In this document: piece after piece, positions 1-60,479 of the stretch
How positions within the stretch are numbered: position 1 is the stretch's first letter
Layout of the letters: each line of letters opens with the position of its first letter
Virus record (IMG/VR): IMGVR_UViG_3300017757_000001
Length of the DNA stretch: 64,000 nucleotides
From: a virus
Strand: one strand, 5' to 3'
Notes under the pieces: model-generated
Told to the model about the DNA's origin: nothing
The model's input: the letters and a program-made list of their open reading frames with translations, nothing else
Database searches by the model: none
Position numbers and translations under genes: made by a program

Positions 1-3000
1 TAGAACCTGCTGTTCCTGAAGAACCACTACCTCCTGAAGATCCAATGTTACCTGTAGAACCTGATTCTCCCGAAGTACCATCTGTTCCTGAAGAACTTGA
101 TAATCCTGAAGTACCTTCTGTACTTGAAGCTCCTGAAGTACCTGAAGTTCCTGTTGTACCTGATAAAGAACTAAACCCACTTGTTCCTGCTGTACTTGAA
201 GCTCCTGAAGTACCATCTGTACCAGAAGTACTACTGTTACCTGAAGTACCTGCTGTACCCGTAGAACCACTTACTCCTGATTGGCCTGAAACTCCTGAAG
301 AGCCTAAAACTCCAGAAGAACCTGCTGTACCATCTGATCCTGAAGTACCTGAAGAGCCACTTCCTCCTGATGAACCACTATTACCTGTTGATCCACTTCC
401 CCCTGAAGTTCCAGTAGTACCATCAGAACCTGATTCTCCTGTTGTACCTGAAGTTCCTGTAGAACCTGATTCTCCTGTTGTACCTGATGTACCATCTGAA
501 CCTGAATTACCTGTTGTACCTGCTGTTCCTGAAGAACCTGTTGTTCCTGAAGTTCCAGTAGTACCATCTGAACCTGAATTACCTGTTGTACCTGAAGTTC
601 CTGTAGAACCTGCTGTTCCTGAAGTACCTGATGTATCTGAATTTCCACTAACAGCTTCTACACATATTAGTTCTTTAACATTTCCTATTAAAGTAAATGA
701 TGATCCTGATGTATTAGATACAGTAAATACTGTAGTTGATCCACCTATAGATACTGCTGATGCTAAATAAGTATTTATAACACCTGTTGCTAGGTGTGTT
801 ATTGATAATACACTTCCAATCCCAGCACTAGTAACCCATGGGAATGCAGCATTAGGTAATTCAATACTTGTAATATTATTTGAATTAGTAGAATTTGCGG
901 TAAATTGAGGGGGTGAACCTACTGGGGATGAACTAACAAAATCAGCTATAACACACCCACCACTTAATCCTGAAGAACCTGCTGTACCAGTAGTACCTGC
1001 TGTACCACTTGATCCACTTTCTCCTGTTGTACCATCTGTTCCTGAAGAACCTGTTGTACCTGATGTACCAGTTGTACCACTAGAACCACTTTCTCCAGTT
1101 GTACCACTAGTTCCAGTAGAACCTGTTGTACCTGAAGTTCCAGTTGTACCACTTGATCCACTTTCTCCAGTTGTACCACTAGTTCCACTTTCTCCTGAAG
1201 TACCAGTTGTTCCTGTAGAACCTGATTCACCTGCTGTACCTGAAGTACCATCTGAGCCACTTTCTCCTGTTGTACCATCTGTTCCTGAAGAACCTGAAGT
1301 TCCAGTTGAACCTGAAGTACCATCTGAACCTGATTCACCTGAAGTACCTATTGTTCCTGAAGAACCTGATGTTCCTGTTGTACCTGAAGTACCATTTGTA
1401 CCTGATTGTCCTCCTGTACCTGAAGTTCCTGAAGTACCTGAAGTACCACTTACTCCTGATTGACCTGAAACTCCTGAAGAACCTAGAATTCCTGATGTAC
1501 CTGCTGTACCATCTGATCCTGAAGAACCTGAAGTTCCTGATTCACCTGATTCACCTTTTGTACCATCATTTCCACTAGTACCTGATGTACCAGATGTACC
1601 TGTAGAATTTGATTGACCTGTTGTACCTGCTGTTCCTGTAGAACCCGAAGATCCTGAAGTTCCAGTTGAACCACTTGATCCACTTTCTCCTGTTGTACCA
1701 TCTGTTCCAGATGAACCTGAAGTTCCTGTAGTACCTGAAGTACCATCTGAACCTGATTCTCCTGTTGTACCACTAGTTCCAGTAGAACCTGTTGTACCTG
1801 AAGTTCCAGTTGTACCACTTGATCCACTTTCTCCAGTTGTACCATCTGTTCCTGAAGAACCTGAAGTTCCAGTAGTACCACTTGATCCACTTTCTCCTGA
1901 AGTACCATTAGATCCAGTTGTTCCATGAGTTCCAGTTGTTCCTGTAGTACCTGCTGTACCTGAAGTACCATTTGTACCTGAAGTACCATCTGAGCCACTA
2001 TCCCCTGAAGTACCATCTGTTCCTGTAGTACCTGCTGTTCCTGAAGTACCACTTACCCCAGATTGACCTGAAACTCCTGAAGAACCTAAAACTCCAGAAG
2101 AACCTGCTGTACCATCTGTTCCTGAAGTACCTGAAGTTGCACTTTGTCCTGATGTACCTGAAGAATGTCCTGAACCTGAAGTACCTGCTGTTCCTGAAGA
2201 TGAACTTGCACCTGAAGATCCATGGTCTCCTGTTGTACCTGAAGTTCCTGTAGAACCTGCTGTACCATCTGAACCTGAATCACCTGAAGAACCATCATTT
2301 CCTGTTGATCCTGAAGTACCTGCTGTTCCTGCTGTACCATCTGAGCCTGATTCACCTGCTGTTCCTGCTGTACCATCAGAACCTGATTCTCCATTTGTTC
2401 CTGAAGAACCATCAGAACCACTTTCTCCTGCTGTACCATCTGTTCCTGTAGAACCTGAAGTTCCTGTAGTACCTGAAGTACCATCTGAGCCACTTTCCCC
2501 TGAAGAACCATCTGTTCCTGTAGAACCTGCTGTTCCTGAAGTTCCAGAAGTACCATCGGAACCTGATTCTCCGCTTGTTCCTGAAGTACCTGATGTTCCT
2601 CCTGTACCATTAGTACCTGAAGTGCCATCAGATCCTGAATTTCCGCTTGTTCCTGAAGTACCTGCTGTTCCTCCTGTACCATTAGTACCTGAAGTACCAT
2701 TAGATCCTGATTCACCTGAAGTACCTGAAGTTCCTTCTGTACCACTTGTTCCTGAAGAACCATCAGAACCTGATTTACCTGAAGTGTTGGATGAACCTGC
2801 TGTACCTCCTGTTCCTGAAGTACCATCTGAACCACTTACTCCAGTTGTTCCTGATGTACCATCAGAACCTGATTCTCCGGATGTGCCATCTGTTCCTGTA
2901 GAACCTGCTGTACCTGATGAACCCGAAGAACCATCAGAACCACTATCTCCTGAAGAACCATCTGTTCCTGTAGAACCTGCTGTTCCTGAAGTTCCAGAAG

Positions 3001-3545
3001 TACCATTTGAGCCACTATCCCCTGAAGTACCATCTGTTCCTGTAGAACCTGATGTACCTGATGTACCTGAAGAACCATCAGAACCTGATTCACCTGATGT
3101 ACCTGAAGAACCATCTGTACCTGAAGTACCTGAAGTTCCAGAAGTACCATCTGTTCCAGATATACCTGATGTACCTGAAGAACCATCTGAGCCTGAAGTA
3201 CCTGAAGTACCTGAAGTACCATCTGTTCCTGAAGAACCTGATGTACCTGATGTACCTGAAGTACCATCAGAACCTGATTCTCCACTTGTTCCTGAAGTAC
3301 CTGAAGTACCACTTACTCCATTTGTTCCATTTGTACCATCTGAACCTGATTCACCTGAAGTACCTGCTGTACCATCTGAACCTGATTCACCTGAAGTACC
3401 TGAAGTACCACTTGTATTATTTGTACCCGATGTACCTGCTGTACCACTTGCTCCTGAAGAACCTATTAATCCCGAAGTACCTGAAGTACCAGATTCTCCA
3501 GCTGTACCATTTGTGCCTGAAAAACCACTTGTACCTGATGTTACA
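1..3545 (-). repeat. 9-bp-period coding repeat (Gly-X-Y) with longer internal duplications, interrupted at ~650-960
   Basis: Period-9 acctgaagt/acctgctgt/accatctg units; near-identical blocks at ~1100-1180 and ~1765-1845, and at ~267-336, ~1446-1515 and ~2049-2117. Confidence 0.95.
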
Positions 3546-4087
3546 TTTACATATCCTAATATTCCTGTTACTGCATCATAAGTAACAATTGTAGGCATAT
3601 CTTGTGTTGGAAGAGTATTTATTTTAAAATTTTCAAAAACTGATCCAGGTTTTTCAGTTAATTGAAATGCTGCACTACCTGTTACTAAGAAACTACCTGT
3701 AATTTCTGCTGGGTGGTTAGGTAATGCTATTGTTCCTGATCCTGAGTATGGAAATGAAACACCTTGTGAATCGGTTATTTCTATGTTTATACCATTAGCA
3801 CCATTAGGAGTAATACTATTTATAGCATTACCAGTTAAATATACTTCTGTAGTATTAGACGTTATTACACTACCATTATACAAAAATTGTATACCACTAC
3901 CATAACCTGGCATAGTAGATAAGTCAATACTATGAGAATAATAAGATTGACTAGCAAAGTAAAAATTTATTTTACTACCTTCTAAAGAACTTGAAGCATA
4001 TAAAGATTGCCAGTTAGTATCAACTTCATACCAAGTTAATTCTGATCCTTTATTTATCCTTAATAATATGTCTGGTACAAATGGCAT
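1..4087 (-). CDS. Giant collagen-like (Gly-X-Y, Ser/Thr-rich) tail fibre protein, 3' end outside the window (>1360 aa)
   Basis: Not in the ORF track because there is no stop in the window. ATG at 4087 abuts the upstream TAA. Reads [29 protein letters not shown] (R-x-x-KGS-x-LT-x-x-E-x-D-x-N fibre attachment motif), then [12 protein letters not shown]... triplets; the same frame is read at position 2. Confidence 0.85.
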
Positions 4088-5632: not shown

Positions 5633-6820
5633 TTACCCTATATAAATTACTCGTGGAACCTTATCTAATTCTTTTTGAACAAAATCAGATTCCATTGTTC
5701 TTCTTTCTAATAACTTTTCTCTAGATGTTTCATCAAAAAATGCTCTTAGTTTTTCTAATAATGCTTCTTTTTCAGCTCGTGCAGCTGCTAATAAATCAGC
5801 TTGATTTAATGTAACTTCAGCACCTGGTATAGGTACTTGTGTATATTTACCCCTAACATATCCCAACATTTCTTTAGCAATTGCTAATGTCATTTCAAAT
5901 ATCCAAGCTCTACCTACTGAATTAATATCTGAATATTTTGGGTTTTTATAAGGTACTCCACTAACTGTTTTAATTTTTAAATATCCATCTTCAAATGATG
6001 CTGAATTTCTTTCTGAATTTAACATAAATTCAAACCATATACTACCTGCTGAACCTGAAGGATGTGCTCCTGGTACACCATTAACAGGTACATTTCTTGG
6101 GATTGGAAATACTCTTAATACATTGTTATGCATTTCAAACGAAAAATTAGATCTTCTAATAGTATCACTTAATTCTATAGCTTGAATTACTTGTGTATCA
6201 TAATTAAGGGGCATCATCATAAAATTAACAGCAGGAGAATAATTACCCCAACCAAAAGAATCCATCATATTCATCATTCCTGTACCTGATCCTACGTATG
6301 GGTCGAAAAATTTAACAATAGCTGGAGTATTCTCATAAAATACTCTCATTATTTCTATATCATTATCTTTATACCCATTTTCAATTGCCCAAGCATTTAA
6401 ATCATAATCTTGAACACTACCTGTTAAATGAATTCTTCCTTTATGCCATGGTACATTTCCTCCAGTTCCTGCTTCAGCTCCATATTGTTCTGATAATGCT
6501 ATTATACGTCCTAAATTAGGTGTTACAATAGTTTCATTTATATCAATTGAATCAGGTGTACCTTCTAATGATAAATAATTATCTCTTATTTTATAAGCAA
6601 ATAACTCATTACCATATAAAGTAACTGCTTCTTCAAAAGCAGCATAAAAATTTTTAGCTTGTAATTCAATTTCAACAATAGGATATCCCATTCTTCTAGA
6701 ACAGAAAACACAGACTTTAGGTGCATCTTGCTCAAATGCAGTATCATAATCATAAAATCCAAATGGTGTATCACCAGGATGAAATGAAGCCGAACCAGGC
6801 CATATAGGTATATTTGCCAT
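5633..6820 (-). CDS. Neck / head-tail adaptor protein, T4 gp13-like
   Basis: RRMGYPIVEIEL near the N-terminus; AKEMLGYVRGKY..PIPGAEVTLN near the C-terminus. Confidence 0.8.
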   Translation of the reverse strand: MANIPIWPGSASFHPGDTPFGFYDYDTAFEQDAPKVCVFCSRRMGYPIVEIELQAKNFYAAFEEAVTLYGNELFAYKIRDNYLSLEGTPDSIDINETIVTPNLGRIIALSEQYGAEAGTGGNVPWHKGRIHLTGSVQDYDLNAWAIENGYKDNDIEIMRVFYENTPAIVKFFDPYVGSGTGMMNMMDSFGWGNYSPAVNFMMMPLNYDTQVIQAIELSDTIRRSNFSFEMHNNVLRVFPIPRNVPVNGVPGAHPSGSAGSIWFEFMLNSERNSASFEDGYLKIKTVSGVPYKNPKYSDINSVGRAWIFEMTLAIAKEMLGYVRGKYTQVPIPGAEVTLNQADLLAAARAEKEALLEKLRAFFDETSREKLLERRTMESDFVQKELDKVPRVIYIG

Positions 6821-6832
6821 ATTTTATATTTT

Positions 6833-7888
6833 TTAAGCGTTAACAATTACATATTCAACATCAATACTTGAGCTAATAGCATAAACTGAAATAAATTCAA
6901 TATCTTGTCCAAAAGATCCAATAAACTGACTTCCAGTTACATTAGGACTTGAAAACATTAATGATGATGTTGGTAAGCAATCCATAGTCCAATAACTTCT
7001 AGATGTATTAGTAGTAAAATCTGTAGCACCTAAAGTAACTAATAAATCACTTGCACCTCCTAAAGTAGTAGTACCATTCATAGTAAGTATATCATTTACT
7101 GAGTAACCTGTTCCTTGATTATTTACTATAATACTTGTAGGTTCAATTTGTATATTACTTACACTAACTCTAACAACTAAATCACCAACTACAGTACCTA
7201 AATTACCATCGGCATTTAAAGCTGCTTCTGTAAAAGTTATAGTTTCGGTATTACTATATCCTTGCCCGTTTCCTTCAACTGTAACTTGACTTACTATACC
7301 ACCAAAAGTTGTAATTTTAAATTTTGCTCCAACTCCTCCTCCACTAGAACTATTTTGAAATAGAAAATTTGTACTACCTGCAGCTGTTGCAGTTATATTA
7401 CTACTAATACCAACAGTAGAATTTACTACTAATTTACCAGCTGAATTATTAGTTATAACATTAAATGTTGCTCCTGTACCTGTTCCTCCGGTAACAGGAA
7501 CACCTGCTCCTCCATTAGTATATGTTCCTGCTGTACCTTGTAAACCCCCACCAGTATATGAAGATGGATATAATTCTTTAGCAGGATATAAAATTCCACC
7601 AACACCTGCTGATGAGGTAAAATTAACAGCTAGACTATAAGTATCATCTAAATTAGTTATTCTACCATATTTTAAACTACTTGAAGGGAAAGTACCTGCG
7701 CCTGGATTTACACCATTTACATTAATTAAATCAATTGATGTTGTATTAGGACAAGTAACAACCCTTCTATCATAATTAGTCACATTATCTATTCTATAAA
7801 AGTTCTCATTTACAGTCCTTATATCACTAACTACGTGTGTTTCTTTAATTTTAATTGAAAAAACTGTTGGTTTAAGAGTTGATGCCAT
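6833..7888 (-). CDS. Virion structural protein with inserted Gly/Thr-rich beta modules
   Basis: GTGATFNV...GTGYSVNDILT and GVGAKFKI...GQGYSNTETITF modules; late motif upstream. Confidence 0.6.
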   Translation of the reverse strand: MASTLKPTVFSIKIKETHVVSDIRTVNENFYRIDNVTNYDRRVVTCPNTTSIDLINVNGVNPGAGTFPSSSLKYGRITNLDDTYSLAVNFTSSAGVGGILYPAKELYPSSYTGGGLQGTAGTYTNGGAGVPVTGGTGTGATFNVITNNSAGKLVVNSTVGISSNITATAAGSTNFLFQNSSSGGGVGAKFKITTFGGIVSQVTVEGNGQGYSNTETITFTEAALNADGNLGTVVGDLVVRVSVSNIQIEPTSIIVNNQGTGYSVNDILTMNGTTTLGGASDLLVTLGATDFTTNTSRSYWTMDCLPTSSLMFSSPNVTGSQFIGSFGQDIEFISVYAISSSIDVEYVIVNA

Positions 7889-7898
7889 ATCTTTTTGT

Positions 7899-7907
7899 TA
7901 TAAATAT
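7899..7907 (-). promoter_or_regulatory. Putative late promoter ATATTTATA
   Basis: Recurrent motif 10 nt upstream of the start codon. Confidence 0.65.
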
Positions 7908-7933
7908 TGGGAAAATATTCTCTAATTTAGAAA

Positions 7934-8599
7934 TTAGTGATATCCATTCAATAAATCCAATAAATCATCTATAGCATCATGTCTGTGTGAATCTTCTAGC
8001 ACACATTTAAATACATATTTTGAGTTTGTTAACTTAGCCATGTCATGATAAGCTGAGTAGTTTTTATCTTTTAAATCAATTTGGTATGAATCCCCACAAA
8101 ATATCATTTTTGAATCTTTCCCTAATCTACCAATACACATAGCTAATTGTGACCTAGTTAAATTTTGAAATTCATCTACAATAACTACAGCATTATCAAA
8201 TGTACGTCCTCTAAAATGGGCTAAAGATACTAATTCTATTTTTTCATCTTTTTCCATTTTTTCTAAAATTGGAGGTTTATTATAAATTTTTCTCATATTA
8301 GACCTAATAGGTACTAACCAAGGTTCCATTTTTTCACGTTCTGAGCCTGGGAGGAATCCATTATCTTCTGTTGCTATAGTAGGTCTTGTAATGACAATTT
8401 TATTATATTGTCTTTTAAAAAATTGATCTAATGCTACTTGTACAGCTAATAATGTTTTACCACTACCTGCTTTTCCCACAATAAAATTATAGGGTGATTT
8501 TAATATTGCTGTTTTTGCTATCTTTTGTTCTTCTGACAAAGAGAGGCTAAATCGTATACTACCTTTGGGTGGTGTTTTTTCCATATTAGATTTTGGCAT
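7934..8599 (-). CDS. phoH: PhoH-family ATPase
   Basis: GKAGSGKT Walker A, ITRP, GFLPG, FRGRTF, VDEFQN, GRLG, GD-x-x-Q-x-D, RH motifs. Confidence 0.95.
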   Translation of the reverse strand: MPKSNMEKTPPKGSIRFSLSLSEEQKIAKTAILKSPYNFIVGKAGSGKTLLAVQVALDQFFKRQYNKIVITRPTIATEDNGFLPGSEREKMEPWLVPIRSNMRKIYNKPPILEKMEKDEKIELVSLAHFRGRTFDNAVVIVDEFQNLTRSQLAMCIGRLGKDSKMIFCGDSYQIDLKDKNYSAYHDMAKLTNSKYVFKCVLEDSHRHDAIDDLLDLLNGYH

Positions 8600-9308
8600 T
8601 TGTTTTAATTTTTACTAATTTATCTAGTCCTGCATTTATATGCATGGTTTCATTCAACAATAATTCAAATGTATATCTGTCATCTAGAGGTAACACTAGG
8701 TCAACTTGAGAACCCCATCTAATTAAACTAAATCTTTCATTTTGAGTAACTAAATCTCCTTGATGTTTAAAAGGAGCTATAACATTTACATCTTCATCTG
8801 CTATTTGTATTATGTGATATGTGTAATCTAATGTAGGAATGTAAATTTGATTAGACATTCTTTCATTATATTTTAAATAATCCATATTATTAGGATTAAT
8901 TACTTTATTTAGTATATCTTTTTCTACAGCTAACATAGGTTTATTTGTAGATTCAATAGGTTCTAAATTTTTATATTTTAATACCCCTCCATAAGGAATT
9001 CTATAAATATGCACATCATAAAAAGACATAAATATCCCAATTACTAAGGAAGGTTTATTATAACTTTTATCTCCCATAACATCTTGAATAGTATAATCTA
9101 TACCTTTAATTTCAAGTACTTGTTCATTAGGTAAAACTGTTTTTTGATATAAAATAGTTCCATCTGCTGGGCTATAAAAATGTTCATGATCAATGTATGT
9201 TGGTCTTATTGGGTCTCTAAAAAAGAAAGTATTACTTAATACTCCTACAGGCATTTTAGATAATTCTGCAACTTCTCCATTTAACCAATCTTCTAATTCT
9301 TCAGCCAT
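8586..9308 (-). CDS. Phosphatidylserine-decarboxylase-fold pyruvoyl proenzyme, atypical and lacking a membrane anchor
   Basis: FFRDP, SPADG, IFMS-x-x-DVH, NER and IRWGSQVD (GS autocleavage) motifs. Confidence 0.85.
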   Translation of the reverse strand: MAEELEDWLNGEVAELSKMPVGVLSNTFFFRDPIRPTYIDHEHFYSPADGTILYQKTVLPNEQVLEIKGIDYTIQDVMGDKSYNKPSLVIGIFMSFYDVHIYRIPYGGVLKYKNLEPIESTNKPMLAVEKDILNKVINPNNMDYLKYNERMSNQIYIPTLDYTYHIIQIADEDVNVIAPFKHQGDLVTQNERFSLIRWGSQVDLVLPLDDRYTFELLLNETMHINAGLDKLVKIKTNAKI

Positions 9309-10222
9309 TAAAGGAGTGTTTTAAAATGATCTACCCTATTTAAATGCATTACCATACAACTTAACATTGCTCCTGATTTCATATATTCAGATAAGTTAAA
9401 TATTACAGGTTCCATTCCTTCATCAGAACATATTTTTTCTAATGAAGATATTTTATGTTTTTCTCCTTCATAAAATTCATCTTCTTTTTTCATTTCTGAT
9501 ATATTGGAAGCACACAAAATCATATTTCCTAATCTAACTGAGTTTGCCATCCCATACATTGAGTCGTCAGCATCTATGTCTATTATATTAGTATATTTGC
9601 TTAATTGCGCTAACTCTTCTTTTTCATATAACTCCGTACAAACCATTGTTGAGCGCGTATTTAACGGGAATATTGAACAATCTAAATGATACATATATTC
9701 ATCAACCATTTTAACTTTAATAACATTCATGTCAAAATTTTCTTCCATCCAATGGTAAGTTTTTATATCTGATCTAATATCAAACCCACCTATATAAACA
9801 TTATCTTTTAAATATTTTATATCTGCTTCACCTTCCCATTTATGGGGTGATATGTGAGTTTTATAACCCATTTGATTAAAAAACTTTTCACCTACAAATT
9901 CTTCACCCTGTCTTGGTGGAGAAGTATAATTAGATAATAAAATATGATTTTCATCTTTAATATGAGGTAATTGTAAACCTAAATTTGCTACATATATTAG
10001 ATCTTGAAAATTACCTTCTGCAGGTAACAAATGTACTAATGATTGACCTGCCATAAAGTTGTATAAATCCATAAATTGTTTATATGCCTTTGGCCTATTT
10101 ATAGATAATTCTTTTTCTGACATTTCTTTCATCCAAACATTATTTGGATCATTAGTAGAAAAGGTGTGGGGGAAATTCATCACATAACTTTGTATAGGTA
10201 ACTGTGAGGGTGTCTCTTTCAT
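9308..10222 (-). CDS. Pentein guanidino-modifying enzyme, ArgZ/AgrE-type arginine dihydrolase-like
   Basis: NVWM, DLIYVANLGL, RQGEE, WEGEAD, YHLDC and SEYMKSGAMLSC (catalytic Cys) motifs. Confidence 0.85.
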   Translation of the reverse strand: MKETPSQLPIQSYVMNFPHTFSTNDPNNVWMKEMSEKELSINRPKAYKQFMDLYNFMAGQSLVHLLPAEGNFQDLIYVANLGLQLPHIKDENHILLSNYTSPPRQGEEFVGEKFFNQMGYKTHISPHKWEGEADIKYLKDNVYIGGFDIRSDIKTYHWMEENFDMNVIKVKMVDEYMYHLDCSIFPLNTRSTMVCTELYEKEELAQLSKYTNIIDIDADDSMYGMANSVRLGNMILCASNISEMKKEDEFYEGEKHKISSLEKICSDEGMEPVIFNLSEYMKSGAMLSCMVMHLNRVDHFKTLL

Positions 10223-10251
10223 TTTAAAACTATTTTTAATTATTATTTGAG

Positions 10252-10260
10252 TATAAATAT
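10252..10260 (-). promoter_or_regulatory. Putative late promoter ATATTTATA for the pentein-PSD-PhoH operon
   Basis: Motif lies between the MCP terminator and the pentein start. Confidence 0.65.
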
Positions 10261-10289
10261 ACTACCTATTTATTAGGTAAACAAATAAC

Positions 10290-10318
10290 AAAAAAAAAGC
10301 CCCGCTAATGCGGGGCTT
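10290..10318 (-). terminator. Intrinsic terminator after the major capsid gene
   Basis: - strand AAGCCCCGC-ATTA-GCGGGGCTT followed by a T-run. Confidence 0.92.
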
Positions 10319-10340
10319 CTTAATCATTATGTATTAACTA

Positions 10341-12353
10341 TTAGATAGTGTTTAAACCACTTACCATAATCTTACCATAGAATTCTGGTCTAACCATTTT
10401 CTTCGCGTATCTAGTCAATAGACCTTTACGTGGAACAAAAGTGTTTGGATCATAAACCATTGGAGTCATGATTAATGGAATATACGGAGCAAATACAGCA
10501 CCAGCTTCTAAGAACTGACCACCTCTATATCCCATAAGAATTGTATTCTCTGTCATATAAGGGTTTTTGTAAACTGTATATCTAGAATTCATTTGTCCAG
10601 CTTTTTGTACTCCAAATGCATAAGACGCTTTTGAAGTGTCTCCATCTGAATTACTTGCAAATCCTGGAATTGATTCTAAAATAGTACCAACTGAAGGAGA
10701 GCAAACTAAGAAATTAGCACCACCTCTAAGAGTTCTTTGGTGAATAATATTACTTAATTTTTGCATCTTTGTTCCTAAAGTTTGGAACCATTGTCCTTGT
10801 GAGTTATAAAATCCTAAATCAGAATTTACAACACCACCTGCAGAAATTGCTAAATTGTTTTCTGCTGACCAGTACTCAGTACCTGCCGCTGCATCTTCAA
10901 TTAGCATTCCAAGAATTTCTAAATCAATTTCAAGTGAAATATACTCACTCATAATTGAAGTTAATTCAGCTTCTGCATCTAAAGAATGATAAGCATTTAA
11001 ATCTTGAGCAAACTCAGGAGTCCAAACAGCTTTCAATTTTTTAGTTTTAGCAACAATAGCTTCACTTGACATTTTAACATCAATTTCTGGAATGTCAAAC
11101 GTTGCGTTTGCATTGTCTCCATTTAAATTGGTGTTATCCCATTCGAAGTCACCTCTGTTGTTATCAGTTGGAGCTAGTACTTGAGATATTCTAACACCTG
11201 TTCCACCTACAAAGTTTCCTGCATTAAGTACGAATTGGATAAATGTACCTACTTCAGTAACACCTTGAATAGTGTAAACTAATGAAGCATAAGCAGCATT
11301 AGCACCAATAACAGGTAAAGAAGCTTTAGGGAATGTAATAGCATCACCAACTTTAAATCCAGCACCTGGATTAGTAGCAGTAATAGTTACACCTGCAGCT
11401 AAGTTAGCACCTGCAGCAACTACTGTAAATACAGCACCTGTTCCAGTACCATTTGTAGTCCAAGTAGAAACACCTGCATCAGTTCCTGCAACAGTAGTAC
11501 CACCACCAGTTACAGATCCTGCACCACCTAATCCAGCAATACCTAGGTCTAAACCTATTCTTAATCCATCAGTAGTTACTTTTGTAAATGCTGGGTATTG
11601 GTTAGCACCAACATCACCTAATCCTGTGTTTGCTGCACCACCTGCATCACCTGCTAAAGCTGGCTTCAAGTAGAAAGCTGAAACCGCTGTTGGGTCCCAA
11701 ATACCTGCACCTGCTGCATCTTGAGCTAAGTTAGTAGTTAAAGTTTGAGCTAATTGTAAGTTACCTGCTAAAAATGAAGCTGAAACAGCACCATCTGCAT
11801 TACAATCTCTAAACCAATCAACATTACCTGCTGTCATTCCAGCTTGAGTAAATGACTCAGTATCTTGTGTTGAATATGAAAATCTACCTGCACCATAAAG
11901 ACCACCTTTTGCAGCATTACCAAAAGTATTTGCTGGATCAGTGTCACCATAAAGTGAAGTATTTTGTGCAAATGGAGTCTTAGCAGTTCCGTATTGGAAA
12001 TCTAAGAAAAATACTAGACCAGAAGGTAAGTTCATTGGTTGAACCGAAACAAATTCTTTTGCTGCGATTTGACCAAATACTTTTCTTACCAATGGTAAAG
12101 CAACTCCTGCCCATTGTGCACCTCTACCAGGAGAGAAAGTACCAGATCCAGCACCACCACCTGTGTTACTGTCCTCTGTTACTAATTGTTTAGCTTGATT
12201 TTCTAAGATCATAGACATATTATTTTTGTCTGTCTCAGAAGCTAAACCTTCAAGTAGGCCTGTTTTGCCCCACTTGGACGCTAACCTTGCAGCATCACTT
12301 TGTAGTGACTTGTAAGGATTTGCGGATTCTAAAAGTGAATTTAATTGACTCAT
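10341..12353 (-). CDS. Major capsid protein, T4 gp23-like, with an enlarged insertion region
   Basis: LPLVRKVF, VSVQPMNLPSGLVF, AKTKKLKAVWTPEFAQDLNAYH-x-LDAEAEL, APYIPL, PRKGLLTRY. Confidence 0.97.
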   Translation of the reverse strand: MSQLNSLLESANPYKSLQSDAARLASKWGKTGLLEGLASETDKNNMSMILENQAKQLVTEDSNTGGGAGSGTFSPGRGAQWAGVALPLVRKVFGQIAAKEFVSVQPMNLPSGLVFFLDFQYGTAKTPFAQNTSLYGDTDPANTFGNAAKGGLYGAGRFSYSTQDTESFTQAGMTAGNVDWFRDCNADGAVSASFLAGNLQLAQTLTTNLAQDAAGAGIWDPTAVSAFYLKPALAGDAGGAANTGLGDVGANQYPAFTKVTTDGLRIGLDLGIAGLGGAGSVTGGGTTVAGTDAGVSTWTTNGTGTGAVFTVVAAGANLAAGVTITATNPGAGFKVGDAITFPKASLPVIGANAAYASLVYTIQGVTEVGTFIQFVLNAGNFVGGTGVRISQVLAPTDNNRGDFEWDNTNLNGDNANATFDIPEIDVKMSSEAIVAKTKKLKAVWTPEFAQDLNAYHSLDAEAELTSIMSEYISLEIDLEILGMLIEDAAAGTEYWSAENNLAISAGGVVNSDLGFYNSQGQWFQTLGTKMQKLSNIIHQRTLRGGANFLVCSPSVGTILESIPGFASNSDGDTSKASYAFGVQKAGQMNSRYTVYKNPYMTENTILMGYRGGQFLEAGAVFAPYIPLIMTPMVYDPNTFVPRKGLLTRYAKKMVRPEFYGKIMVSGLNTI

Positions 12354-12385
12354 TTCTTTTAATTTTAAAGTTTAATTATTATTTT

Positions 12386-17219: not shown

Positions 17220-17253
17220 CAATATTTATTTTTTTATAAATATATTAAAATTT

Positions 17254-25695: not shown

Positions 25696-25958
25696 ATTTT
25701 TAATTTTAATTTACCCGTTCCTTTAATGACACGATGCCATTGATGTCTTTTTATAAATATACGTTCGTTTAAGGAAGATGGTAATTTATTATCTAATTGT
25801 AACATCCAATCAGTTTTACCTATTATTTCAATAGATCTATCTTCATCATCACGATGCCAAAGTAATTCAATAGGATCTATATTTTCACTAAATTCTCTTA
25901 TAGTGTATTCTTTTGTAACCTCTAAGTCTTTATAAGGTTTTATTTTGTTTTCCCCCAT
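25677..25958 (-). CDS. Small cupin-like phage protein
   Basis: WHRD-x-EDR ... WHRVIKG. Confidence 0.6.
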   Translation of the reverse strand: MGENKIKPYKDLEVTKEYTIREFSENIDPIELLWHRDDEDRSIEIIGKTDWMLQLDNKLPSSLNERIFIKRHQWHRVIKGTGKLKLKIWQQHL

Positions 25959-31082: not shown

Positions 31083-31134
31083 TATTTTTATTTTAGTTGG
31101 GTTTATTTATAAATATATAAAAATTATTAATCGT

Positions 31135-32412: not shown

Positions 32413-32448
32413 TATAGGTATGTTTTATATTGTATAAATATATAAGAA

Positions 32449-42872: not shown

Positions 42873-42906
42873 TATAAATATATGTATTTTTAATTTTCAC
42901 TCCAAA
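42873..42906 (-). promoter_or_regulatory. Overlapping early-type (TTTGG-N18-ATATATT) and late (ATATTTATA) motifs
   Basis: Both motifs superimposed upstream of 42853. Confidence 0.55.
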
Positions 42907-60440: not shown

Positions 60441-60479
60441 ATTTTATTTATAAATATACATAAATAAAAAGACTAGGAT

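Follow-up and report, generated by a model that had tools for sequence, protein, structure and literature searches.

The DNA analysed here is a stretch of 64,000 nucleotides from the virus record IMGVR_UViG_3300017757_000001 of IMG/VR, below called the window. Directly behind its major capsid gene lie a gene for a stand-alone pentein resembling the arginine dihydrolases ArgZ and AgrE and a gene for a soluble protein with the fold of phosphatidylserine decarboxylase (PSD), referred to below as the PSD-like protein. From sequence comparison and structure models we propose, with moderate confidence, that the two form a self-contained two-enzyme module converting L-arginine into putrescine, in which the dihydrolase acts first and decarboxylation of ornithine follows. 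More tentatively, modelling suggests that the two enzymes could form a dedicated heteromeric complex which channels arginine to putrescine. This would be an undescribed route, widespread in bacteria of many phyla and the sole one in some, which T4-like phages of Bacteroidota and Campylobacter and other phages would have taken up as a late polyamine supply. Phages need polyamines for their replication, and packaged DNA is neutralised by them; the pathways leading to putrescine are regarded as well charted.

The pentein gene (9308-10222, minus strand) encodes 304 amino acids and is the proposed arginine dihydrolase. The PSD-like gene (8586-9308, minus strand), for a protein of 240 amino acids, is the proposed ornithine (or arginine) decarboxylase of the pyruvoyl type. 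The stop codon of the first and the start codon of the second share the sequence TAATG, and the PSD-like gene overlaps by 14 nt with a gene for a PhoH-like ATPase (7934-8599, minus strand, 221 amino acids; PF02562, E 1.2e-48). A preliminary description, made from the sequence alone, had reported three overlapping genes with a late motif of their own behind the terminator of the capsid gene; the coordinates, the hairpin and the strand-specific motif TATATTTATA were confirmed.

The same description had matched the pentein to the dihydrolase domain of ArgZ and AgrE on the basis of a set of motifs, and this match holds. The motifs NNVWM, QDLIYVANLGL, RQGEE, EGEAD, YHLD and SCMVMHLN are present and are invariant or nearly invariant among 57 aligned relatives. 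AgrE and ArgZ were the only sequence matches in the PDB, with an E-value of 1e-14 for the single sequence and of 1e-28 to 1e-24 for a profile built from a 36-member family alignment. A Pfam search of the pentein gave no match. Scores of about 80 bits were obtained with the NCBIfam models for dimethylargininase, arginine dihydrolase and ArgZ, all far under the cut-offs; with NF052232 (arginine dihydrolase domain) the pentein scored 81.6 bits against a cut-off of 450 and the bacterial partner 90 bits.

The AlphaFold (AF2) model of the pentein, with a pLDDT of 92, was compared with known structures by Foldseek. It superimposed best on AgrE and ArgZ (TM-score about 0.80, range 0.77-0.81, E 1e-20), ahead of DDAH (TM 0.70, E 1e-12) and also ahead of the amidinotransferases, and reached a TM-score of 0.58 with the agmatine deiminase of C. 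jejuni. Judged by sequence and by model, the pentein resembles arginine dihydrolases far more than agmatine deiminases. It consists of a single pentein domain, with no C-terminal ornithine-cyclodeaminase-like domain, and has a family-specific insert at approximately residues 240-276 and Arg230 at the position of an asparagine of ArgZ.

In the alignment, N22, D65, N71, R90, E93, E118, R139, H168, D170 and C264 of AgrE correspond to N28, D74, N80, R104, E107, E130, R150, H179, D181 and C289 of the pentein, each of which is invariant in 36 aligned relatives. C264 and N71 are the positions mutated in deposited ArgZ/AgrE structures, according to the PDB entry titles, and Asn71, part of a TAN motif which replaces an acidic pair of DDAH, reportedly defines the dihydrolase chemistry of ArgZ. 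In DDAH a pair of arginines holds the alpha-carboxylate of the substrate. R104 and R150 (R90 and R139 in AgrE) align with what we take to be this pair and are kept in 53-56 of the 57 relatives; arginine would therefore be favoured over agmatine as the substrate of the pentein.

The second protein matches the PSD family PF02666 with 93.6 bits (gathering cut-off 22, E 1.6e-26) and falls below the cut-off in 15 of 15 NCBIfam PSD equivalog models, the best score being 79.4 bits against a cut-off of 183. Its AF2 model (pLDDT 91) matched E. coli PSD with a Z-score of 11 and a root-mean-square deviation (rmsd) of 4.5 A over 167-173 aligned residues, the fungal tryptophan decarboxylase PsiD with a Z-score of 10.4 and the fungal arginine decarboxylase Ao-ADC1 with a Z-score of 9.6 over 176 residues. 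The residues for self-cleavage, namely D49 (in SPADG), H100 (in DVH) and G199-S200, are present and conserved throughout the family, in agreement with the preliminary description. Gly199-Ser200 (8709-8714, minus strand), where the protein is predicted to cleave itself and to form the pyruvoyl group, falls on the G-S site of PsiD in the alignment and is kept in 78 of 80 metagenomic representatives and in 80 of 80 bacterial copies.

Two departures from ordinary PSDs that had been described earlier, the loss of the hydrophobic anchor and the exchange of a basic segment for an acidic one, were both borne out. No transmembrane segment was detected in the PSD-like protein, for which the highest Kyte-Doolittle mean over 19 residues is 1.07 and the isoelectric point 4.98. 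For comparison, canonical PSDs were taken from bacterial genomes which also carry a PSD-like gene, and aligned. Where the window protein has QIADEDVNVI (residues 168-177; 8778-8807, minus strand), the canonical short PSDs of two bacterial genomes have QIAGLVARRI or QIAGLIARRI; the bacterial PSD-like copies have QIADYDVD at the position of QIADEDVN. The canonical short PSDs begin with a hydrophobic stretch, in place of which the PSD-like family has a short acidic amphipathic helix, and the family has an additional 15 or so residues between N122 and N148.

D171 is found in 78 of 80 metagenomic representatives and in 80 of 80 bacterial copies, D or E at 173 is nearly as constant, and the bacterial strand carries D171, D173 and D175. 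On the alignment, the charge of the strand is reversed: two arginines, which suit the negative head group of a phospholipid, have given way to two or three aspartates, which suit a cationic side chain. A profile alignment (E 0.04) pairs A170-D171-E172-D173-V174 with the strand G-M373-T374-E375-I376 of PsiD. M373, T374 and I376 contact the side chain of the substrate in the PsiD-tryptamine structure (PMC11929908), so that the counterpart of the acidic strand lines the pocket of a PSD-family amino-acid decarboxylase. By sequence the PSD-like protein lies outside the fungal PsiD and Ao-ADC1 clades, PsiD being reached at E 0.04 only and Ao-ADC1 not being found by the family profile at E-values up to 10.

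In structure prediction of complexes, the best of three controls scored 0.01 and the pentein together with the PSD-like protein 0.63. Of the solved complexes 58 of 80 attain this mark, and of the mismatched pairs 2 of 110, a calibration that is rough only, as custom family alignments were used here. At least 87% of the contacts are shared between runs, and the pLDDT of the partner is at least 83. On the pentein side the predicted interface comprises the family insert (258-266 and 271-276) and helix 48-56, so that the insert at about 240-276 forms most of it; on the PSD-like side it comprises loop 34-43, just before SPADG, and residue 188 beside the invariant Q189. We know of no solved complex of a pentein and a PSD fold, and the score is therefore unlikely to stem from model memory. 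The prediction supports binding of the two proteins to each other, as a matter of model confidence and not of measurement.

Fusion proteins were also surveyed. Among the long PSD-like proteins none is fused to a pentein; they carry an intein, an Acb1 or ADP-ribosyltransferase domain or extensions of unknown sequence instead, and the longer pentein relatives include one protein of 659 amino acids with no precomputed Pfam domain. This survey is weak evidence either way. In one metagenomic relative (among P0242, P0246 and P0247) an intein with a LAGLIDADG endonuclease lies inside the PSD-like domain, and others among these three are fused to an anti-CBASS Acb1 domain or to an ADP-ribosyltransferase domain. 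The fusions may be real or may result from read-through in gene calling.

Linkage of the two genes in related genomes had been named as a test in the preliminary description. They were found adjacent in 80 of 80 IMG/VR loci, in three of five distant contigs and in 73 of 80 bacterial loci. In all of the 80 related IMG/VR loci the order is gp23 (major capsid protein), pentein, PSD-like, PhoH, with identities of 69-95% for the pentein and 78-89% for the PSD-like protein; PhoH occurs in two divergent versions, with identities of about 48% and 89%. A search of 1.8 billion cluster representatives yielded 97 clusters at E < 1e-30. Among the five distant phage-like contigs looked up, three have the pentein directly 5' of the PSD-like gene (43%, 37% and 33% identity), and Pfam labels it DDAH-like in the 43% and 37% contigs; in the other two no pentein was present within the short flanks. 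One distant phage-like contig (L084/P0253) has the pair behind a gene for a protein of 1342 amino acids with an ART-PolyVal (ADP-ribosyltransferase) domain. The relatives number more than 1,200 PSD-like and more than 1,200 pentein clusters at 90% protein identity, mostly metagenomic.

Among GenBank phages, 45-46 records contain genes for both the pentein and the PSD-like protein. The two genes lie side by side in Bacteroides phages, for example SJC03, DAC16 and DAC23, and about 43 kb apart in Campylobacter Fletchervirus. Annotations of the Campylobacter phages call the products 'phosphatidylserine decarboxylase' and 'amidinotransferase', and both families are listed as of unknown function in PHROGs (12670 and 12759). 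SpeE and AdoMetDC (S-adenosylmethionine decarboxylase) are absent from four phage relatives that are 97-100% complete. PhoH always lies 3' of the pair in the marine phage group, and no PhoH gene stands beside the pair in the bacterial loci or in Campylobacter phages. It probably belongs to the same transcription unit in this phage lineage only and takes no part in the chemistry.

The pair is also found in bacteria. One genome per prokaryotic species was scanned with a 12-sequence alignment of PSD-like proteins, which returned more than 541 relatives; the bacterial counts given in this study refer to the best 80 of these. They are 43-53% identical to the phage PSD-like protein, except for one (L091, 89%), which is a phage copy in a metagenome-assembled genome (MAG). 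These 80 belong to Actinomycetota, Verrucomicrobiota, Alpha- and Gammaproteobacteria, Campylobacterota, Acidobacteriota, Planctomycetota and others. In the 73 loci with an adjoining pentein homologue, this usually lies about 100 nt downstream of the PSD-like gene. Most of the bacterial penteins show 44-53% identity, a few from actinomycetes 30-41%. A quick maximum-likelihood tree places the bacterial copies together in a single tight clade, grouped largely by phylum, with the longer branches of the phage copies outside it. Two loci, L097 from a Desulfobacula MAG and L120 from a Nanoarchaeota MAG, show the phage gene order, with the pentein before the PSD-like gene; in the tree L120 stands outside the main bacterial clade beside phage branches and L097 at the base of the clade. 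These two may be viral as well.

Several genes of arginine and polyamine metabolism were found next to the bacterial pairs. ArgB (acetylglutamate kinase) occurs in five loci, the member tested exceeding the curated cut-off, a PotD-like spermidine/putrescine-binding protein in 11 loci, of Verrucomicrobia only, and a SpeE-like polyamine aminopropyltransferase directly after the pair in three. An agmatine-deiminase-like gene (PF04371) is the neighbour in six loci of Alphaproteobacteria and actinomycetes, an ABC exporter in 11 and a MatE exporter in two. DNA-modification or lipid genes were not among the bacterial neighbours of the pair.

In the cluster of Hoeflea sp. TYP-13 (L098, genome G001; 5980-12363) the PSD-like and pentein genes are accompanied by genes for a SpeE-like protein, an ABC exporter and ArgB and by two unknown genes, and an agmatine-deiminase-like gene lies divergently beside the cluster. 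The SpeE-like gene of this cluster is the only one in the genome, and the AdoMet decarboxylase family PF02675 was not found there. In two Streptomyces loci (L122 and L139, 6001-12708) a PSD-like gene with no pentein lies beside a nonribosomal peptide synthetase (NRPS) module (C-A-PCP). The Streptomyces protein may be a decarboxylase supplying the amine for a peptide natural product.

The polyamine genes of five pair-bearing bacterial genomes, some of them drafts, were inventoried. A canonical PSD is present besides the PSD-like copy in four of the five, scoring 145-210 bits against 80-92 for the PSD-like protein; the fifth, a Caulobacteraceae MAG, has the PSD-like copy only and no canonical PSD. 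In the draft genomes of Ca. Glomeribacter and the Caulobacteraceae MAG no SpeA, AAT-fold decarboxylase, agmatine deiminase, arginase/agmatinase, SpeE or AdoMetDC was found, and each has one PF02784 protein, the length of which suggests LysA. The pair is therefore the sole visible route to a diamine in these two drafts. PF02675 was found in none of the five genomes, and most of the pair-bearing genomes and phages lack an aminopropyltransferase.

Taken together, these data are compatible with the following scheme. The pentein would act first, with two successive hydrolyses of the guanidino group that turn L-arginine into L-ornithine, CO2 and two NH3. The PSD-like protein would cleave itself at Gly199-Ser200 to create a pyruvoyl cofactor and would then decarboxylate ornithine to putrescine, its D171/D173 strand holding the distal amine. 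Because the cassette stands behind a late-type motif among structural genes, putrescine would be made late, during DNA replication and packaging, a purpose on which we can only speculate. The order arginine, ornithine, putrescine is favoured because the pentein keeps the full residue set of ArgZ/AgrE and resembles arginine dihydrolases. The preliminary description had proposed a soluble decarboxylase of a cationic amino acid that works with the pentein towards putrescine, by way of either ornithine or agmatine. The linkage of the genes, the polyamine-related neighbours, the strand alignment with PsiD and the coexisting canonical PSD speak for this proposal.

A number of observations weigh against this scheme. 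Neither protein comes near the NCBIfam equivalog cut-offs (for the pentein 81.6 against 450), and substrate specificity is therefore not transferable from these models. Binding of the alpha-carboxylate by R104 and R150 is putative and based on analogy with DDAH, and the alignment of the PSD-like protein with PsiD, at E 0.04, is weak. Sulfurimonas and Sedimenticola have SpeA and AguA in addition to the pair, which therefore does not merely replace the standard route in these genomes. In 13 loci the adjoining exporters might mean that the product is secreted and is not a housekeeping polyamine. An agmatine-deiminase-like gene adjoins the pair in six loci; with these neighbours and the precedent of Ao-ADC1, a route through agmatine would be at least equally plausible.

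Such a route would reverse the two steps: the PSD-like protein would be an arginine decarboxylase and the pentein would strip the guanidino group from agmatine, yielding either putrescine directly, as an 'agmatine dihydrolase', or N-carbamoylputrescine. We consider this less likely, but it is a serious rival and the best of the alternatives. The preliminary description had held that no polyamine decarboxylase with a PSD fold was known, which is incorrect, as Ao-ADC1 (PDB 9JER), a PSD-family enzyme that acts on arginine, already is one (PMC12904898) and matches the model of the PSD-like protein. A guanidinium group would also fit the strand, one face of which carries two or three acidic residues (D171, D173 and the bacterial D175), and the flanking agmatine-deiminase-like genes and the PSD-like genes that stand beside NRPS genes with no pentein in the two Streptomyces fit the reversed order as well. 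In addition, the annotation of Campylobacter phage NCTC12673 notes a similarity of the phage protein to an open reading frame (ORF) of GenBank AF210249. We take this record to be the bleomycin cluster, and agmatine to be one of the terminal amines of bleomycin. However, the pentein keeps both of the putative carboxylate-binding arginines, for which an enzyme acting on agmatine would have no need, its model is much closer to AgrE/ArgZ than to the agmatine deiminase of C. jejuni, and Ao-ADC1 is not detectable with the sequence profile of the PSD-like family.

Returning to the arginine-to-putrescine module, a second alternative, which appears unlikely, is that the pair makes another amine or a small molecule derived from a guanidino compound. 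The product might be another cationic amino acid in decarboxylated form, with lysine, diaminobutyrate, citrulline, S-adenosylmethionine (AdoMet) and S-methylmethionine as examples of the substrates that would come into question, or a compound from which an exported or specialised metabolite is built. The ABC or MatE exporters following the pair in the 13 bacterial loci and the NRPS neighbours in Streptomyces would be explained in this way, and both proteins fall far below every equivalog cut-off. The SpeE-like gene in the Hoeflea cluster, in a genome where PF02675 was not found, would even allow the PSD-like protein to be a substitute AdoMet decarboxylase. On the other hand, the complete phage relatives and two pair-bearing bacterial genomes have no aminopropyltransferase to use decarboxylated AdoMet, the full ArgZ-type catalytic set of the pentein points to a guanidino substrate, and the neighbouring genes suggest arginine (ArgB) and putrescine or spermidine (PotD-like). 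The substitute AdoMet decarboxylase was retained as a minor rival only, given that aminopropyltransferases are lacking from most pair-bearing genomes and phages.

A third possibility, which is very improbable, is that the two enzymes act on phage DNA, on a capsid protein, on an aminolipid or on some other macromolecule or lipid head group instead of producing a free polyamine. Fletchervirus carries modified DNA. The Campylobacter phage matches listed have genomes of 124-135 kb, the record examined (NCTC12673) is a Fletchervirus, and the cassette of the window lies among structural genes behind a late-type motif. However, the pair is chromosomal in many bacterial phyla, where it stands beside polyamine and arginine genes and not beside DNA-modification or lipid genes, and both enzymes are small, soluble and single-domain, with no extra binding domain. 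Hypermodification of DNA was set aside, as the bacterial chromosomal contexts of the pair speak otherwise. Least credible of all is an ordinary phosphatidylserine decarboxylase that raises phosphatidylethanolamine synthesis of the host, with an unrelated pentein beside it: the PF02666 match and the name given to the protein in GenBank records of Campylobacter phages are outweighed by the missing membrane anchor, the acidic strand in place of the basic one, a score of about 79 bits where every PSD equivalog has a cut-off of at least 183, the canonical PSD coexisting in four of five genomes (with the Caulobacteraceae genome having the PSD-like protein and no canonical PSD) and the tight linkage to the pentein.

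The cassette is embedded in the structural region of the phage. The major capsid gene gp23 (10341-12353, minus strand, 670 amino acids) is closed by an intrinsic terminator (10294-10321, minus strand) with a GC-rich stem of 12 bp, seven of them GC pairs, a loop of 4 nt and a T-run. The late-type promoter-like motif TATATTTATA follows at 10252-10261 (minus strand), 39 nt 5' of the ATG of the pentein. Behind PhoH, a shorter relative of this motif, ATATTTATA (7899-7907, minus strand), heads the following structural operon. The order on the minus strand is thus gp23, hairpin terminator, TATATTTATA, pentein, PSD-like, PhoH and ATATTTATA, and the cassette of pentein, PSD-like and PhoH genes is bounded by two late-type motifs.

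In the whole window TATATTTATA occurs seven times on the minus strand and not once on the plus strand; the sites other than the one at 10252-10261 are 17235-17244, 25752-25761, 31108-31117, 32433-32442, 42873-42882 and 60449-60458, all minus. Each copy lies about 10-55 nt 5' of the start of a minus-strand ORF in the structural region. Based on this distribution, TATATTTATA is a candidate late-promoter consensus for this phage group, differing from the TATAAATA of T4, and presumably functions as a promoter. Nearly all long ORFs of the window are on the minus strand. The window is AT-rich, with a G+C content of about 25-36% beyond base 4000, and reaches up to 43% within 1-4000.

The closest relatives of gp23 are those of T4-like Flavobacterium 'immuto' phages, with 62% identity. 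When 24 kb of the window were compared with phage records by megablast, nothing matched, so there is no close cultured relative among them. The bacterial locus L091 (NZWA01000018.1), assigned to a Flavobacteriales MAG, represents a copy of the phage, with gp23, pentein and PSD-like proteins 74-90% identical; the binning may be a weak hint of the host or may be contamination. Because of the gp23 relationship and the Flavobacteriales bin, the phage is a marine T4-like phage, probably with a host among the Bacteroidota. Only both ends of gp23 match other gp23 proteins, and its middle, rich in Ala, Gly and Thr, resembles an inserted domain. Motifs of this middle part (GTGTGA-F-V ... G-GF/Y ... ITF) recur in a protein of 351 amino acids encoded right after PhoH (6833-7888), which suggests that the two proteins have a surface domain in common.

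If the proposed module is correct, a very common gene pair encodes an unrecognised route from arginine to putrescine, assembled from an ArgZ-type dihydrolase and from the fold of a lipid enzyme repurposed for a basic amino acid. The annotations 'phosphatidylserine decarboxylase' and 'amidinotransferase', and the unknown function of PHROGs 12670 and 12759, would then have to be corrected; surveys of viral auxiliary metabolic genes may be counting the genes of the pair as phosphatidylethanolamine or creatine metabolism. The PSD-like protein would also be a clean case of charge reversal on a substrate strand (RR to DxD), by which an enzyme for an anionic lipid came to serve a cationic metabolite. 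A literature search found no description of the pair of pentein and PSD-like protein, and Li et al. (2023), who catalogued the polyamine enzymes encoded by viruses, mention no PSD-like proteins and no arginine dihydrolases (PMC9992855). Decarboxylation of amino acids by PSD-family enzymes is already established by Ao-ADC1 and PsiD; what is undescribed is the combination of these known folds for polyamine synthesis. The present analysis contributes these fungal precedents, the comparison with canonical PSDs of the same genomes and the polyamine inventories of the five pair-bearing genomes.

Among the known systems, ArgZ (Synechocystis Sll1336) and AgrE (Anabaena Alr4995), with PDB entries 6JUY-6JV1 and 6LRF-6LRH, have the pentein fold in common with the window protein (rmsd 2.3-3.1 A) and the same aligned residues, including Asn71, Cys264 and R90/R139. 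They are bifunctional, with a C-terminal ornithine-cyclodeaminase-like domain, whereas the pentein of the window is a stand-alone protein of 304 amino acids, which is about 20% identical to them in the structural alignment and differs by its insert at about 240-276 and by Arg230 in place of the ArgZ asparagine.

For the second protein, the nearest functional precedent is Ao-ADC1 of Aspergillus oryzae, a pyruvoyl-dependent arginine decarboxylase of the PF02666 family which self-cleaves at a Gly-Ser site, has no PSD activity and has been solved with agmatine on the pyruvoyl group (PDB 9JER, 9JF5 and 9JFN) (PMC12904898). Unlike the PSD-like protein, it is a fungal enzyme of 483 amino acids whose N-terminal region is helical, has its highest activity at acid pH and is not reported to be paired with a pentein. 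PsiD, the L-tryptophan decarboxylase of psilocybin biosynthesis (PDB 8X4Q and 8ZIA), is a PSD-family amino-acid decarboxylase, as is proposed here for the PSD-like protein, but it is fungal, has about 440 amino acids and an autoinhibitory N-terminus, and its pocket is hydrophobic and suited to an indole where that of the PSD-like protein would be acidic.

The canonical short PSDs of bacteria and archaea (PRK05305/TIGR00164 type) belong to the same length class as the PSD-like protein and have the same fold, the same Asp, His and Gly-Ser residues and the common framework FFRDP...SPADG...H.NR.P...GS; they possess an N-terminal hydrophobic anchor and the basic QIAGLxARRI strand, both of which the window family lacks. 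Phages also encode ornithine and arginine decarboxylases derived from AdoMetDC (PMC10407285). These are likewise pyruvoyl enzymes recruited from another family for polyamine precursors, with the fold of AdoMetDC and not that of PSD.

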